A stretch of 64,000 nucleotides of DNA. Origin: Thermoplasmata archaeon. GTDB lineage: Archaea > Thermoplasmatota > Thermoplasmata > UBA10834. A program made the translations under genes and the position numbers. Positions within the stretch are counted from its first letter, which is position 1. The number at the start of each line of letters is the position of its first letter. This document shows, piece by piece, positions 1,045 to 34,671 of the stretch. Location: NCBI GenBank assembly GCA_041548485.1, contig JBFESP010000002.1, positions 10,632 to 74,631 of the forward strand. The letters run 5' to 3'. The notes below the pieces were generated by a model. The model was not told the DNA's origin. It saw nothing but the letters and a program-made list of their open reading frames with translations, and ran no database searches.

Positions 1045-1536
1045 CTACTCGAATTCCTTCCTGGATACTCCGACAAGGATCAGGCCGATCAACGCGAAGA
1101 GCGATCCCAGCATGAACGGTCCGATCACAAACAATCCCAGCACTCCGCCGACTATGGCAAGGCCCCAGGATTTGCGCAGCAGGCCGAGAACGCCCCCGAG
1201 CACTACCACCAAGCTGAGTATTATCACAATGATACCACAGACGTTCATTATGTCATCAATCACGTCTGTAACGCCCGCGACATCCATGCCGTAGGCGTCC
1301 AGGTCCTCGACATCGATTGCAAGCAAGATGCCGCCCAAAGCTAGACCCATTATCCCCGCTACCATTATCAAGGCTCCACCGATGACAGGGATAACAGTCT
1401 TCTTCTTCGGGGGGGCTGGACCTTCTGCTGGGGCTCTGAAATCATGTCCGCAATGCTGGCACACATTGGCATCCATAGCGATGGATCTGCCACAAGACAC
1501 ACACATTCTGCTACCTTGTTCGTCAGTTGATGCCAT
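1045..1536 (-). CDS. zinc-ribbon (CxxC...CxxC) membrane protein
   Basis: N-terminal MCVSCGRS...CQHCGH zinc ribbon followed by about 100 aa of Gly/Ala/Ile/Leu-rich transmembrane segments. Start chosen at the internal Met, upstream of which the ORF continues to 1566. Confidence 0.5.
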   Translation of the reverse strand: MASTDEQGSRMCVSCGRSIAMDANVCQHCGHDFRAPAEGPAPPKKKTVIPVIGGALIMVAGIMGLALGGILLAIDVEDLDAYGMDVAGVTDVIDDIMNVCGIIVIILSLVVVLGGVLGLLRKSWGLAIVGGVLGLFVIGPFMLGSLFALIGLILVGVSRKEFE

Positions 1537-1809
1537 CAACTGGCCTCCTAACCGAACCCCGTGCACTCAGGTCCACATCCCTAGGATTCAGCCACGTGTT
1601 AATCGACTCCGGGGTTTATATCTGTTTGGTTCAATCAAATAGGAACGACCACGGATGAGCTGGCTAGCCTAATCTGGAGGCGGTTACTGACTAGAATCGA
1701 CGCCTTTCCGAGGAGAGGAGTCACTGCGAATCGTCTCAGCGACGCAGGGCGTCCGGCAGACCATTCCCCGGTTGAAACGGAGGGTGATCTCACTAGCTGT
1801 GCGTGGGAG

Positions 1810-3045: not shown

Positions 3046-3118
3046 GCCACCGTAGCTCAGCAGGAAGAGCAGCTGACTTGTAATCAGCAGGCCGGGAGTT
3101 CAAATCTCCCCGGTGGCT
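3046..3118 (+). tRNA. tRNA-Thr (anticodon TGT)
   Basis: GCCACCGTAGCTCAGCAGG...GCTGA-CTTGTAA-TCAGC...GGGAGTTCAAATCTCCC-CGGTGGC-T cloverleaf. 7-bp acceptor stem, anticodon TGT. Confidence 0.85.
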
Positions 3119-3269
3119 CATGATCGTTCTGACGGAGAAGACCAGGGGGGATGTCGTGGTTGGGGGTGGCAGCCTCCGAAGACCGGAGCCAGAGGCTGCC
3201 TTCATCGTGAGAAATCAGGCTGCCGCCTTGAGGCGGTGAAAGGGGTTTTCTGCAGGCCACGATCTCAAT

Positions 3270-3998
3270 TCAGAGGAGCAGGATCGGCTTGCCCGGCCTC
3301 AGGGGGTACTTCTTACACTTGTAGCAGTACCATTCGTTGTACTGGGCTATGAACTTCAGCTCGGATTTGCAGGTAGGACAGACCTTCTTCCCGGACGTAG
3401 CGCCGCTCTTGGGGGCGTAGGCCTTGCACGCGTCGCAGTAGTGCCGCTTGTACTTCTCGATGTACCGCAGTTTGCCGTTGCACTTCGTACATGAGTTCGT
3501 ATTCTTCGGCGCCCGAGGCTTGGCCTTCGCCTTGTGGAGAGGATACTTCTTGCACGCGTAGCAGTACCATTCGTTGTGCCTCTGGACGAACTTCATCTCG
3601 CCAGAGCAGTCAGGGCAGTTCTTGACCTCCGGCCCCTTCTTTGGCGCTTCGGCCGGCGCCTTGGCAGGTTCGGGTTCCTCGATGGCCACGGGGGCGTACT
3701 TCTTACAGCTGTAGCAGTAGTCCCTCTGATACTTCTCAATCCACTTCAGAGGTTGCCCGCAGTTTGCGCACATACGGACCTCGACCGACTCCTTCGGGAC
3801 CTCGGGCTTCGGCTCCTCCGGGACGCTCGGTTCCTCCTTGGGCTGAGCTTCCTCGACCTCGGGTTCCTCAGCGATCTCCTGTTCGGGTTCAATCTCCTCA
3901 TCGGCGATGTATGAATTGCACTCGTAGCAGTACCACTTCTCCATGTGCTCGAGGAAATTGGGTTCTTCACCACAATTCGGACACTTCGATGCTTCCAT
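3270..3998 (-). CDS. protein of five tandem zinc-ribbon modules (C-x2-C ... W-Y-C-Y-x-C-x-K-Y) joined by acidic or basic linkers
   Basis: The translation shows five repeats of about 27 aa: KCPNCGEEPNFLEHMEKWYCYECNSY, RMCANCGQPLKWIEKYQRDYCYSCKKY, KNCPDCSGEMKFVQRHNEWYCYACKKY, NSCTKCNGKLRYIEKYKRHYCDACKAY, KVCPTCKSELKFIAQYNEWYCYKCKKY. Confidence 0.6.
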   Translation of the reverse strand: MEASKCPNCGEEPNFLEHMEKWYCYECNSYIADEEIEPEQEIAEEPEVEEAQPKEEPSVPEEPKPEVPKESVEVRMCANCGQPLKWIEKYQRDYCYSCKKYAPVAIEEPEPAKAPAEAPKKGPEVKNCPDCSGEMKFVQRHNEWYCYACKKYPLHKAKAKPRAPKNTNSCTKCNGKLRYIEKYKRHYCDACKAYAPKSGATSGKKVCPTCKSELKFIAQYNEWYCYKCKKYPLRPGKPILLL

Positions 3999-4235
3999 CT
4001 TCGTCAGCTCCGGTCTTCGCAGGGTTCGCCGAACGGAGGGATTCCCTCCTGGAGCGCCTCCTGCTCTCCTGTGTGAATCTACGGAGCCCGAGCGTATATG
4101 AACATGTCATCCTAAGAATCAACCATGATAACGGATGCGTTAGGGCGGCCAGCATCCTAGTAGCCTACGTGTAGAGCATGCCAATGAAGGTGAAGGACCG
4201 ATATCGATCAGCGGAATCCCGAAGGAGGGACCGAA

Positions 4236-4724
4236 ATGCAGGTTATCGCCGGGCACGGGAAGCGATTGGCGCGCGACCGAGGAGCAGGGATCGAGGGGCT
4301 GCCGCTGCAGCTGCTGATAATGGTGGTGGTGGCGGGCCTAGGTCTGACAATCATCATGGGTTGGATGAGCTCGATATCGGCACCTAGGTCGATAGGAGAC
4401 ATATTCGTTACGCCAGGAGAGATCATGGTCCGCGACCTGGACGGGGACGGAATCTACATCCGTGAAGGGCTGACCCTTGCTGTGACTGTGACCGACCAGG
4501 ACGGCGACAGGATCGAAGGGGCGACCGTCATACTAGAGGGGGGCAGTATTAGGACGGAAGACGGGAGCCCCGTCAGTGGGGTCACGGACTCGAGGGGGCA
4601 GGTCGTGTTCACAGACCTTGTTGTGGAACACTTCGGGCGGACCCTCTCGACAGTGACGGTCACAGTGGCGAAGGGCGACTACGGCATCGACTCGAGCTTC
4701 GAGATACCGGTGATCCCGAGCTGA
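4236..4724 (+). CDS. small secreted or membrane-anchored protein with a pilin-like (class III signal peptide-like) N-terminus
   Basis: Basic N-terminus, then GAGIEGLPLQLLIMVVVAGLGLTIIMG hydrophobic segment, then a Thr/Val/Asp-rich beta-type domain. First of three tandem paralogues. Confidence 0.5.
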   Translation: MQVIAGHGKRLARDRGAGIEGLPLQLLIMVVVAGLGLTIIMGWMSSISAPRSIGDIFVTPGEIMVRDLDGDGIYIREGLTLAVTVTDQDGDRIEGATVILEGGSIRTEDGSPVSGVTDSRGQVVFTDLVVEHFGRTLSTVTVTVAKGDYGIDSSFEIPVIPS

Positions 4725-4730
4725 TGACAG

Positions 4731-5216
4731 ATGGCTATAGCTGCTGACATGACTGCTCTCGAGGCGCTGCCGCTCAGGCTGTTGATCGTCGCTGTCGTCG
4801 CGGGCCTCTCGGTCGTCCCCGCAGCCGGCGCGTTGCAGACCCTTCAGGACAGGAGTTTCCTTGACAGGTGCGCAATCCAGCTGGAGAGCATCGTCAATAC
4901 CGCCCAGGTGGTGTCCCTTGAGGGCTTCGGCTCTAAGAGAACTATCGACCTCGACTTCCGTTCAGACGGTTCGCTCGGGATGAACCGGCTCGGGATCGGA
5001 GGATGCTGGGCGGACCCGACGTCGTCGAGCGTTGTCCTGGAGCTGTCCTCCGGTCGCAAGCTCATCCGCTCGGCGGATGAGCCGTTCGTATGGTTGGCGA
5101 CAGGGTCCCATGAATGCCTTGAGACTTCGTCGCCCCTCTTCACCCTCTCGTTGGCAGCGTCACAGCTTGATGGAAGCCCGCTGGTGATTTGCGAGGTGGT
5201 TCCGTGGACTTCGTGA
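4731..5216 (+). CDS. small protein with a pilin-like N-terminus, paralogue of the upstream gene
   Basis: TALEALPLRLLIVAVVAGLSVVPAAG N-terminal motif, shared with the 4236 ORF as (I/L)E(G/A)LPL(Q/R)LLI. Stop TGA at 5214-5216. Confidence 0.5.
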   Translation: MAIAADMTALEALPLRLLIVAVVAGLSVVPAAGALQTLQDRSFLDRCAIQLESIVNTAQVVSLEGFGSKRTIDLDFRSDGSLGMNRLGIGGCWADPTSSSVVLELSSGRKLIRSADEPFVWLATGSHECLETSSPLFTLSLAASQLDGSPLVICEVVPWTS

Positions 5217-5677
5217 TGTCGAAGGTCGGGCTGTCGGTCTGCGCGCTGATCACCGCCTCCGTGCTCGGAGCGGTTGTATCGGATTCAGGAGTGGACGAGA
5301 GGAGGCAAGAGCTACGCGTCGTCCTGCAGAGGATGTGCGACCTCATCTCCTCAGCCGCCCTGGCGGGCGGAGACTCAGTCAGGGTGTTCTGCGTACCGGC
5401 ACTGTCGACCGGGGAGCCGATACGGACAACGGTGACCGTCGACGGAGCGATCGTGTCGTCGGGTACGGCCTCGGAGATAGGCCACCCGTGCACGCGGGTA
5501 CACCTCTGGCATTGGGACGGACGCGACCTGAACGACAGCGTCATAGCGGACCTGGACCGATCGCACGTCGAGACGACCGTTCACACGGGGGAGACTCTCG
5601 AGATCTTCGCGATGTCCATGGTGGTGGGTGACATGCACCAGGTGCTCGTCTTCGTCCTGAGCGCGGGGCCGAGCTGA
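5216..5677 (+). CDS. small protein with an N-terminal hydrophobic anchor (MSKVGLSVCALITASVLGAVVS), third member of the tandem set
   Basis: Its ATG overlaps the stop of the preceding gene in a TGATG arrangement at 5214-5218. Hydrophobic N-terminus followed by a Val/Thr-rich domain. Confidence 0.45.
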   Translation: MSKVGLSVCALITASVLGAVVSDSGVDERRQELRVVLQRMCDLISSAALAGGDSVRVFCVPALSTGEPIRTTVTVDGAIVSSGTASEIGHPCTRVHLWHWDGRDLNDSVIADLDRSHVETTVHTGETLEIFAMSMVVGDMHQVLVFVLSAGPS

Positions 5678-11748: not shown

Positions 11749-11822
11749 TGCCGGGGTGACAGAGAGGCCATGTGGCGGACTGCAGATCCGCAGACAGGAG
11801 TTCAAATCTCCTTCCCGGCTCC
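11749..11822 (+). tRNA. tRNA-Cys (anticodon GCA), with encoded 3' CCA
   Basis: GCCGGGG...GCGGA-CTGCAGA-TCCGC...GGAGTTCAAATCTCC-TCCCGGC-T-CCA. 7-bp acceptor stem (one G-U), discriminator U, anticodon GCA. Confidence 0.85.
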
Positions 11823-11926
11823 AAATTATCAAGTTTGATTGATAACTTTATAGCCATGCTGACTATTCGCGGTTCAGAGGGCATCCAACACAATTCTGCG
11901 TAGCCTCTCGAATACATGCGATTTCG

Positions 11927-12307
11927 GTGTGTGATATGAAAACACCATGTGAACTAGTGGTTGGTAAGATCCTTCCATCGCTCAGGGCATCGGTAGTGAA
12001 GGAGCTTTCGGGAATGCACGACATGAAACAATCCGAGATAGCCAGGAAGCTTGGAATAACCCAGGCCTCGGTGAGTCAATATCTGAGTGAGGCCAGAGCC
12101 GGGGACGGAAGAATGATCGAGCGGTTCCCGAAGATTCTGTCCTACGCACAGAACATCTCGGAGAAGATTGTTGCAGGGGAGAGCAGGCGTCAATGGTACG
12201 GCGTCCTTTGCGAGGCATGCAGGGACATACGAGAAGACGAAGAGTTCTGCAAGATGCACAGGATAGCCACGAACATCAGCGGATGCAACATCTGCAAGAA
12301 GAAGTGA
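11927..12307 (+). CDS. putative HTH transcriptional regulator with a C-terminal Cys4 cluster (CEACRD...C..C..NIC)
   Basis: The helix-turn-helix stretch QSEIARKLGITQASVSQYL and four cysteines within the last 45 aa. Family not assigned. Confidence 0.5.
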   Translation: MCDMKTPCELVVGKILPSLRASVVKELSGMHDMKQSEIARKLGITQASVSQYLSEARAGDGRMIERFPKILSYAQNISEKIVAGESRRQWYGVLCEACRDIREDEEFCKMHRIATNISGCNICKKK

Positions 12308-33513: not shown

Positions 33514-34671
33514 ATGCCATCGAAGCGAGATTACTATGATGTTCTCGGCGTTAGCAGGGACGCTGGCGTCGACGAAATCAAGAAGGCATATCGCAGGCTC
33601 GCACTCAAACACCATCCGGACAAGAACAAGGAGCGCCCCAAGGAAGCCGAGGAGAAGTTCAAGGACCTGTCCGAGGCATACGAGGTTCTGGCGGACCCAG
33701 ACAAGAGAGCCAGGTACGACCAGTACGGCCACTCTGGTGTCGAGAGCACCTTCCGAGGTGGAGGGTTCGATTGGTCTGACTTCACACACTTCGAGGACAT
33801 CAGCGACATATTCGGGGGATCCTCCGGATTCGGCTTCGGAGGCAGCATATTCGAGCAGTTCTTCGGAGGGAGACCCAGGTCGGGTCCGCGCGAGGGACGT
33901 TCGCTTAGGTATGACATCGAGATATCGCTCCTGGATGCCGCTTCCGGCGCCGAGAAGGAATTGAGAATCCCCCATTCAGTACAGTGCAAGTCGTGCGAAG
34001 GACAAGGAGCCAAAGCGGAAGACATCAAGACCTGCTCGACATGCAGCGGAGCAGGCCAGGTGAGACGAGGGCAGACCCGCGGAAACACCAGCTTCGTCTC
34101 GATAGCGGCCTGCCCGACGTGCAGGGGCTCTGGCAGGCAGATCACCAAACCTTGCACAACATGCAGCGGCGCTGGCGCCACAGACACGACGAGCACAATC
34201 AAAGTCTCCATCCCCAGGGGAGCCGAGGAGGGGATGAGACTGAGGATCAGAGGGGCTGGCGAAGCAAGCGCGGAGGGAGGAGCTCCGGGTGACCTATTCA
34301 TCGTGATCCACATAGCCCCGCACGAACTCTTCGAAAGAGACGGAGGAGACCTCTACATCGACGCACCGATCTCCTTCTCTGAAGCCGCCTTGGGGGGGAA
34401 GATCCAAGTCCCGACACTCGACGGTTCAGCGCTGGTCACGATCCCACCGGGAACACAGACCGGTACGGTCTTTCGCTTGAAGGGGAAAGGGATGCCGGAC
34501 ATTCGGGGCCGCGGAAGCGGGGACGAATTCGTTAGGGTGCAAGTGATGACACCCACGAAACTCAACTCTGAGCAGAAAGAGATGCTACGAAGATTCTCTG
34601 AATCGGTCGGTCAATACGGGAAGACCGGTGCCAGGAAGATGCGGTTCTCGGACTTCCGGAAGAAGTCCTAG
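33514..34671 (+). CDS. dnaJ: co-chaperone DnaJ
   Basis: J domain ([33 protein letters not shown]), G/F-rich region, four CxxCxGxG zinc-finger repeats, C-terminal domains. Confidence 0.9.

Follow-up and report, generated by a model that had tools for sequence, protein, structure and literature searches.

A tandem zinc-ribbon protein with a charge-polarised architecture from uncultured Thermoplasmata

Zinc ribbons are among the commonest small domains in archaea, and most stand-alone zinc-ribbon proteins have no known function. In E. coli the tandem C-terminal zinc ribbons of TopA (domains D5–D9) form a polyvalent array that binds single-stranded DNA (ssDNA). Here we describe a gene in a 64,000-nucleotide stretch of DNA (the window) from a Thermoplasmata archaeon (GenBank assembly GCA_041548485.1, contig JBFESP010000002.1, positions 10,632 to 74,631 of the forward strand), which encodes a tandem zinc-ribbon protein, referred to below as ZR. 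A little more often than not, we would expect ZR to prove a soluble cytoplasmic multivalent adaptor or scaffold, made of five autonomous Cys4 ribbons (~26 residues each) on disordered linkers. An archaeal counterpart close in described plan is CdpC (HVO_0399, DUF7093) of Haloferax volcanii, which a 2026 preprint presents as the membrane anchor that the archaeal Z ring had been missing, two zinc ribbons connected by a long disordered linker holding FtsZ1 at the membrane; at the N-terminus of CdpC a C3H zinc site is set in an amphipathic helix (L3, L7, L8) that binds the membrane, and its C-terminal ribbon binds FtsZ1 (bioRxiv 10.64898/2026.07.16.738847). The same authors report remote multi-zinc-ribbon relatives of CdpC, of unknown role, ‘in all classes of Thermoplasmatota’, in which the linker is ‘not apparent’ (bioRxiv 10.64898/2026.07.16.738847). 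At the smaller end of the range, C(P)XCG micro-proteins of Haloferax are reported to affect swarming and biofilm formation (PMC6562870).

The locus compares with these systems as follows. ZR and topoisomerase I (E. coli TopA D5–D7) both have a series of Cys4 ribbons that are basic and contain many aromatic residues; ZR differs in having no topoisomerase domain and in its long, disordered linkers. With CdpC, ZR shares the plan of an archaeal, in its own case putatively cytoplasmic, protein whose ribbons are joined by a long, fast-evolving disordered linker and form the conserved functional ends; compared by described features only, CdpC has two ribbons to the five of ZR and lacks the ...LRPxKPxLL tail with which ZR ends. 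The CPxCG knuckle and single-ribbon fold of the ZR modules recur in eS31 (S27ae) and in the small archaeal C(P)XCG micro-proteins, but these are single or double ribbons of <70 residues, whereas ZR is a five-ribbon array with disordered spacers.

Five separate ribbons on disordered linkers

An open reading frame (ORF) on the minus strand, opening with ATG, encodes the 242-residue product (Table 1). A sequence-only reading of the window had described it as five tandem zinc-ribbon modules, and a pattern search agrees: C-x2-C-x14-C-x2-C occurs five times (C6–C27, C77–C98, C128–C149, C170–C191 and C207–C228), and all 20 cysteines fall in the ten CxxC pairs of these modules. When the residues of ZR itself were shuffled 100,000 times, 94,032 shuffles contained no such module, 5,903 contained one, 65 contained two and none contained three or more. 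The signature then proposed for every module, W-Y-C-Y-x-C-x-K-Y, is exact in modules 3 and 5 but approximate in the others, which read WYCYECNSY (module 1), DYCYSCKKY (module 2) and HYCDACKAY (module 4). The linkers are, as described, acidic or basic and proline-rich, the acidic linker quoted in that reading corresponding to residues 34–66 and the later ones being short, basic and rich in proline. Modules 2 and 4 are identical at 14 of 29 residues and modules 3 and 5 at 18 of 29, pairings that give the module order (A-B)(A-B); as the repeats are only 60–72% identical at the DNA level, the duplications are old. Charge is distributed unevenly along the chain, with an isoelectric point (pI) of 4.05 for residues 1–73 and 9.4 for residues 74–242, and no hydrophobic segment was found in ZR (19-residue Kyte-Doolittle maximum −0.01).

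An AlphaFold2 model of ZR, built on a 117-sequence alignment, contains five separate ribbons with short paired strands around the knuckles (predicted local distance difference test, pLDDT, ~90), with a predicted template modelling (pTM) score of 0.27 for the whole. pLDDT falls below 50 at residues 37–70, 108–122 and 157–164 and at the extreme C-terminus, and the model has no globular domain beyond the ribbons. The structure prediction is in keeping with the beads-on-a-string arrangement suggested earlier, that is, independent knuckle/β-hairpin units on disordered linkers, with no packing predicted between modules. As modelled, ZR has the zinc-ribbon fold, in which two CxxC knuckles bracket a β-hairpin.

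ZR is a real gene, and the ORF on the opposite strand (3641–4174, plus) is not. A 93%-identical orthologue (locus L001) differs at 8 first, 10 second and 32 third codon positions of the minus-strand frame, and in it the opposite-strand ORF is interrupted by two in-frame stops. With third-position substitutions dominating and the competing ORF broken, the earlier assignment of coding to the minus strand stands.

Table 1. Features of the ZR locus, in coordinates of the window; residue numbers (aa) are those of ZR.
Feature	Position	Strand	Remarks
CDS (coding sequence) of tandem zinc-ribbon protein (ZR)	3270–3998	−	Stop codon 3270–3272; codon-position bias; homologues
Module 1, acidic ribbon KCPNCGEEPNFLEHMEKWYCYECNSY	3909–3986	−	aa 5–30; most conserved segment (0.86); pLDDT ~90
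Acidic disordered linker	3780–3905	−	aa 32–73; net charge −15; pLDDT <50; conservation 0.38
Module 2, type A ribbon MCANCGQPLKWIEKYQRDYCYSCKKY	3696–3773	−	aa 76–101; closest to module 4
Module 3, type B ribbon NCPDCSGEMKFVQRHNEWYCYACKKY	3543–3620	−	aa 127–152; closest to module 5
Module 4, type A ribbon SCTKCNGKLRYIEKYKRHYCDACKAY	3417–3494	−	aa 169–194
Module 5, type B ribbon VCPTCKSELKFIAQYNEWYCYKCKKY	3306–3383	−	aa 206–231; conservation 0.78
Conserved C-terminal peptide LRPGKPILLL	3273–3302	−	aa 233–242; conservation 0.84; not folded in model
Shine-Dalgarno-like GGAG	4008–4011	−	~9 nt before ATG
Conserved promoter block, 44 nt	4088–4131	−	Rest of intergenic region poorly conserved
TATA-like TTCATATA	4095–4102	−	After purine-rich stretch resembling a transcription factor B recognition element (BRE)
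Palindrome TTATCA-N4-TGAT	4118–4131	−	Within promoter block
Three small divergent genes	4236–4724, 4731–5216, 5189–5677	+	Each with N-terminal hydrophobic helix

A conserved family and its possible ligand

Among 5.8 billion proteins searched, 137 are homologues at E ≤ 1e-3, ranging from 93% down to ~34% identity, all of them hypothetical or loosely auto-named and derived from metagenomes or from metagenome-assembled genomes labelled Thermoplasmata, Thermoplasmatota or ‘Methanobacteriota archaeon’. When GTDB was scanned with one genome for each species, 40 ZR loci were located, all in uncultured Thermoplasmata or Thermoplasmatota. Six modules are present in 90 of the 120 homologues listed, and five in 28. 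The clade of the window lacks module 2 of the six-module form, the acidic linker of ZR (aa 32–73) replacing the linker, module 2 and linker of six-module orthologues, and in some five-module relatives a decayed, Cys-less remnant aligns at the missing module. A sister clade, ~27–32% identical to ZR (tblastn), has 5–7 modules. The number of repeats does vary among orthologues (5, 6 or 7), a point that the earlier reading had marked for checking, but to judge by these sequences it varies slowly.

Conservation within the family follows the beads. Identity is 0.57–0.81 for the same module position across proteins and 0.36–0.55 between different positions, so each bead is individually constrained; the mean frequency of the commonest residue is 0.73–0.86 in the modules, 0.29–0.47 in the linkers and 0.84 in the last nine residues. 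The N-terminus, MEASKCPxCG, is nearly invariant in the family. The tail has the family consensus Y-x-L-R-P-x-K-P-x-L-L-[LFIM]-COOH, which is almost invariant in the clade of the window, with R234, P235, P238 and L241 invariant in 117 sequences, and which is missing from the sister clade with its 5–7 modules. Across the family, net charge is −9 to −17 in the first linker or linkers and +1 to +3 in those that follow, the modules after the first linker(s) are positive, and linker length drops toward the C-terminus.

Curated models place ZR among ribbons in general. It scores 28.2 bits against Pfam DZR_2 (PF18912), whose cut-off is 27, and 25.1 bits against DZR (PF12773), whose cut-off is 27.3, each model being matched at E ≤ 1 by 116 of the 117 family members; the double zinc ribbon likeness noted from the letters thus lies just above the threshold with DZR_2 and below it with DZR. 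What ZR has in common with these models is consecutive C-x2-C...C-x2-C ribbons. They are, however, generic models without function, the ribbons of ZR are parted by disordered linkers and not packed as a pair, and the WYCYxCKKY signature, the (A-B)(A-B) order, the charge polarity and the tail all lie outside them. The TFIIB- and TFIIS-type likenesses suggested at the same time did not hold, as Zn_ribbon_TFIIB reaches 15.4 bits against a cut-off of 22, and no TFIIS family is among the Pfam matches, where the resemblance is limited to a fold-level similarity to TFS4/Rpb9 below significance. The modelled chain, moreover, has nothing beyond its ribbons that could be the cyclin-fold core of TFIIB or domain II of TFIIS. 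Nor is a topoisomerase-type zinc-finger family found among the Pfam matches of ZR or of the 117 members. NCBIfam yielded sub-threshold ribbon matches only, such as NF011481, a DUF1610-type RNA-binding ribbon (E 0.0064, 16.5 bits against a cut-off of 61). S27a (PF01599) scores 13.0 bits, so far under its cut-off of 22.3 that the Joint Genome Institute (JGI) label ‘ribosomal protein S27AE’ on some homologues is an over-annotation. A tblastn search of ZR against plasmid records gave no match. Since only generic ribbon models are matched, ZR is a zinc-ribbon array in no curated functional family.

We infer that the metal is zinc, that ZR is cytoplasmic and that it binds multivalently, and the same holds for the nature of its ligand and for any link to the neighbouring membrane proteins considered below. 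As an adaptor, ZR would use its four closely spaced basic C-terminal ribbons, with their short basic linkers, as a polyvalent binding array for a repetitive or polymeric partner, which could be a protein filament (FtsZ, for example), a nucleic acid or another polyanion. The N-terminal ribbon, acidic and highly conserved, would provide together with its long acidic linker a second interaction or an autoinhibitory arm, while the C-terminal ...LRPxKPxLL[LFIM]-COOH would dock into a partner protein as a short linear motif.

Several results weigh against an adaptor role. No ligand or partner was identified by any test run, and Pfam and NCBIfam scans of ZR and of the 117 members taken singly found generic ribbon models only. 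A Foldseek search of the ZR model against the PDB returned nothing at E ≤ 1e-3, its local matches all being zinc ribbons of a generic kind, and a sequence search of the PDB nothing better than E 0.087 (eS31 chains, aligned with module 1). The conserved aromatics may do no more than pack inside the ribbons, each of which has a tiny hydrophobic core, and need not mark a binding surface. Finally, the steady adjacency of ZR to the trio of membrane-protein genes that diverges from it is matched by that of csd, nifS, nifU and pyrD to the same trio, and may be plain synteny.

By analogy with the tandem ribbons of topoisomerase I, ZR could more specifically be a binder of single-stranded nucleic acid, its four basic ribbons each gripping a few nucleotides through exposed Tyr, Trp, Lys and Arg side chains, with the acidic N-terminal arm acting as an intramolecular competitor and the tail recruiting a partner from replication, repair or RNA processing. 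The idea narrows the adaptor reading and is compatible with it, and we regard it as possible, if on balance unlikely. Residues 74–242 have the character it calls for (the pI of 9.4, the short basic linkers and conserved positions rich in K, R, Y and W), the base rate for archaeal ribbons fits a nucleic-acid ligand, and some homologues carry the JGI labels ‘ssDNA-binding Zn-ribbon topoisomerase 1’ or ‘RNA-binding Zn-ribbon’. The best local Foldseek matches include nucleic-acid-associated ribbons, namely those of the two-ribbon proteins TFS4/Rpb9 (E 0.011–0.07) and the ribbon of P. abyssi RPA (root-mean-square deviation 1.2 Å over 26 residues), alongside Trm112-like ribbons; all of them, however, are insignificant (E ≥ 0.011), and the Pfam matches, as stated above, include no topoisomerase-type zinc finger. 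The same module is also fused to an MMPL transporter, to kinases and to VWA proteins, where binding of DNA or RNA is not obviously needed.

The module in other proteins and the comparison with CdpC

A profile search of 1.84 billion representatives gave 744 clusters at E ≤ 1e-3 and 204 at E ≤ 1e-10, of which the orthologous family accounts for only a handful. The shared module type can be written C-P-x-C-x3-L-x-[FYW]-[IV]-x-[EQK]-Y-x-R-[WY]-[YW]-C-x2-C-x2-Y, and related arrays contain 2–10 copies, often with acidic or proline-rich spacers. Arrays of 2–10 modules of this type are common in the phylum, and to call ZR ‘unusually iterated’, as was done from the window by itself, was an overstatement. 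The module is fused to Ser/Thr kinases, to archaeal AAA ATPases (in which the ribbons are inserted), to an MMPL transporter, to a VWA domain and to proteins with SAP and two transmembrane (TM) helices. So wide a range of partners would be expected if the module serves in targeting or interaction by recognising a common ligand in the cell.

Two of these architectures can be described further. In a recurrent group of Thermoplasmatota proteins (P0135, P0140, P0141, P0145, P0152 and others) WYC-type ribbons are combined with a SAP domain, in the order two WYC-type ribbons, a long Pro/Ala/Glu-rich spacer, SAP, two ribbons and two C-terminal TM helices; such a protein looks like a membrane-anchored DNA tether. 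When the SAP/TM ribbon genes were checked for cell-division neighbours none was found, the neighbours at L046–L049 being uninformative. In archaeal ATPase_2/AAA proteins (P0171, P0183 and P0418–P0424) two WYC-type ribbons are inserted after the Walker A region. A further protein (P0158) joins an ATPase-like N-terminus to the last two modules of the ZR family and its exact tail; as a possible assembly chimera it was set aside.

The spread of the module allows a bolder proposal, which we hold to be unlikely, that ZR is the hub of an undescribed archaeal scaffold in which the WYC-type module recognises one common structure, the FtsZ ring or the nucleoid. The free-standing ZR, with its 5–7 beads, would then cross-link or organise that structure, and the C-terminal peptide would recruit a further partner.

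A division role could also be envisaged by direct analogy with CdpC, with one or more ribbons binding the globular domain of FtsZ and the array bundling or anchoring the filaments. Both proteins have conserved terminal ribbons and, between them, a long disordered linker that varies, and the remote multi-ribbon relatives noted by the authors of the CdpC study are in Thermoplasmatota; yet the linker that is ‘not apparent’ in those relatives is prominent in ZR. The N-terminus of ZR, MEASKCPNCGEEP, forms no helix in the model, and its first site is Cys4 (C6, C9, C24, C27), so that MEASKCP and a Cys4 site stand where CdpC has the L3/L7/L8 amphipathic helix and C3H site. DUF7093 is neither among the Pfam matches of ZR at E ≤ 10 nor one of the 25 families that the 117 members hit most often. 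With both the amphipathic helix/C3H site and DUF7093 lacking, we do not file ZR as CdpC. The window contains no tubulin/FtsZ signature GGGTG[ST]G, and in the neighbours scanned no division gene could be recognised. That ZR is a CdpC-like division factor is accordingly doubtful in our estimation, while it may work in a comparable way.

Promoter and genomic neighbourhood

In essentially every locus the genes are ordered pyrD, nifU and nifS in one direction, csd in the other, then gene3, gene2 and gene1 in the first direction and, divergent from gene1, ZR. On its other side, the ZR stop codon is followed closely by tRNA-Thr(UGU) (3046–3119, plus), which moves as a block with an FKBP26-type isomerase gene (1985–2872) and tRNA-Arg (1809–1884). 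The placement of ZR between tRNA-Thr and this gene cluster was correctly read at the outset, whereas the ‘pilin-like’ label given to these neighbours is plausible but unproven. The N-terminus of gene1, ..G-[AS]-[GS]-I-E-G-L-P-L-Q-L-L-I.., can be read as the pilin-type motif x-x-S-x-E-x-x-x-L, and contains the invariant motif IEGLPLQLLIMVV.AGLGLT...GWM; its model has a disordered segment (1–18), a TM helix (24–47) and an Ig-like sandwich. No Pfam pilin or NCBIfam family is matched by gene1, and a fold search gave generic Ig-like matches and no pilin. The gene is unusually conserved for one encoding a surface protein, its best 120 relatives all being at least 68% identical, and as the homology search gave only these close relatives (120 listed), the linkage over greater distances was read from distant relatives of ZR.

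A functional tie between ZR and this divergent cluster is again improbable to our minds; ZR would then control transcription from the intergenic region that they share, or help in the cytoplasm with assembling or chaperoning the membrane proteins of the cluster. In its favour, the divergent pairing is found in essentially all loci of the clade and persists in the sister clade at only 27–32% identity of ZR: there, gene1 is directly upstream and divergent in 5 of 5 loci examined (L042–L045, L050; N-terminus ...SIEGLPLQLMIMGII...), although the downstream neighbour of ZR has changed from the FKBP gene to a leuA-like gene. Several relatives have insertions of 1–6 kb between the ZR stop and tRNA-Thr, while none has one between ZR and gene1. 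Against this, csd, nifS, nifU and pyrD are collinear with the trio just as faithfully, as already mentioned, so that the synteny may be inert; the products of the trio are predicted to be mostly extracytoplasmic and ZR cytoplasmic; and the fold matches of gene1 are generic Ig-like ones, while neither a pilus ATPase nor a platform gene turned up in the neighbours scanned.

The block and insertions on the tRNA-Thr side concern loci L009, L015, L017, L025, L032, L033 and L035, and suggest a recurrent insertion hot spot beside the tRNA-Thr gene. A 173-residue protein encoded at 1045–1566 (minus), which opens with a single zinc ribbon (weakly matched by UPF0547 and Zn_ribbon_3) and continues in hydrophobic segments, is kept near the FKBP gene in many relatives; its ribbon differs in type from those of ZR. 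Apart from ZR, the only protein of the window with multiple CxxC motifs is an ordinary DnaJ (33514–34671, plus), which has a CXXCXGXG zinc domain and is unrelated to ZR. An Rfam scan of the window found tRNAs only.

The conserved block upstream of ZR reads GTTATCA-N4-TGATT...GA(A/T)(A/G)ACATG-TTCATATA-CGCTC. By analogy with archaeal BRE/TATA organisation, its purine-rich stretch and TTCATATA would be a BRE and TATA element facing ZR, and the palindrome a putative operator. The exact TTATCA-N4-TGAT, with a freely variable spacer, precedes ZR in every locus of the clade for which upstream DNA was included, and the window contains 2 such sites where 0.08 would be expected by chance. The GGAG is invariant in nine aligned close loci, and all 35 upstream sequences have GGAG before the ATG (GGGAG in L018). 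The leader (3999–4087, minus) ranges from ~25 to ~80 nt across the clade, and GCAGG...CCTGC pairing around a variable GC-rich hairpin is kept in the closest 11 loci; a structured 5′ leader is not claimed, as RNAalifold gave only −6.4 kcal/mol with a covariation term of −0.05.

The second palindrome, TTATCAAGTTTGATT, lies at 11826–11840 (plus), 3 nt after tRNA-Cys (11750–11823), can be extended to TTATCAA-N6-TTGATAA and is followed by a TATA-like CTTTATAG and, ~90 nt downstream, by an ORF (11927–12307, plus) for a 126-residue helix-turn-helix (HTH) protein. This protein has weak HTH_3, ArsR and sigma70_r4-like matches and a C-terminal CxxC...C..H...CxxC cluster. The palindrome beside tRNA-Cys is also present in L001, L002, L006, L008 and L039, and with one mismatch in L041. 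The HTH protein may regulate its own gene and also control that of ZR.

Bacterial zinc-ribbon paralogues of ribosomal proteins hold zinc as a reserve. A corresponding role for ZR as a metal store, buffer or redox protein, with reserve zinc or rubredoxin-like iron in its Cys4 sites, strikes us as very improbable. The ten CxxC pairs would provide for it; the C-x2-C-x14-C-x2-C spacing is near that of a rubrerythrin-type FeCys4 domain (weak match to NF033497, E 0.046); genes for two cysteine desulfurases and NifU belong to the same conserved block as ZR; and the promoter palindrome is shared with the small HTH gene and its Cys/His cluster. Long disordered linkers, however, have no role in electron transfer, and the strong, position-specific conservation of non-ligand residues and of the C-terminal peptide argues for specific macromolecular recognition and against a store of metal. 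An accidental Cys periodicity, with the 177-aa ORF on the opposite strand as the real gene, is refuted by the stops and codon pattern described above, by substitutions in the overlap that fall 3/17/5 in the frame of that ORF and so peak at its position 2, the minus-strand position 3, and by the 137 protein homologues at identities down to ~34%.

Zinc-ribbon proteins themselves are known; what is distinctive here is an iterated, charge-polarised, tail-bearing architecture confined to one archaeal lineage. Returning to ZR as a multivalent adaptor or scaffold, the family offers several handles for a search for the ligand of this module type, namely a well-defined, strongly conserved single locus, the conservation of each bead, the charge polarity, the C-terminal peptide and the putative operator in the promoter. 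Should ZR turn out to be an ordinary nucleic-acid binder, the finding would be of local interest only. If the ligand is FtsZ or the nucleoid, the fusions of the module to kinases, ATPases and transporters would become interpretable.

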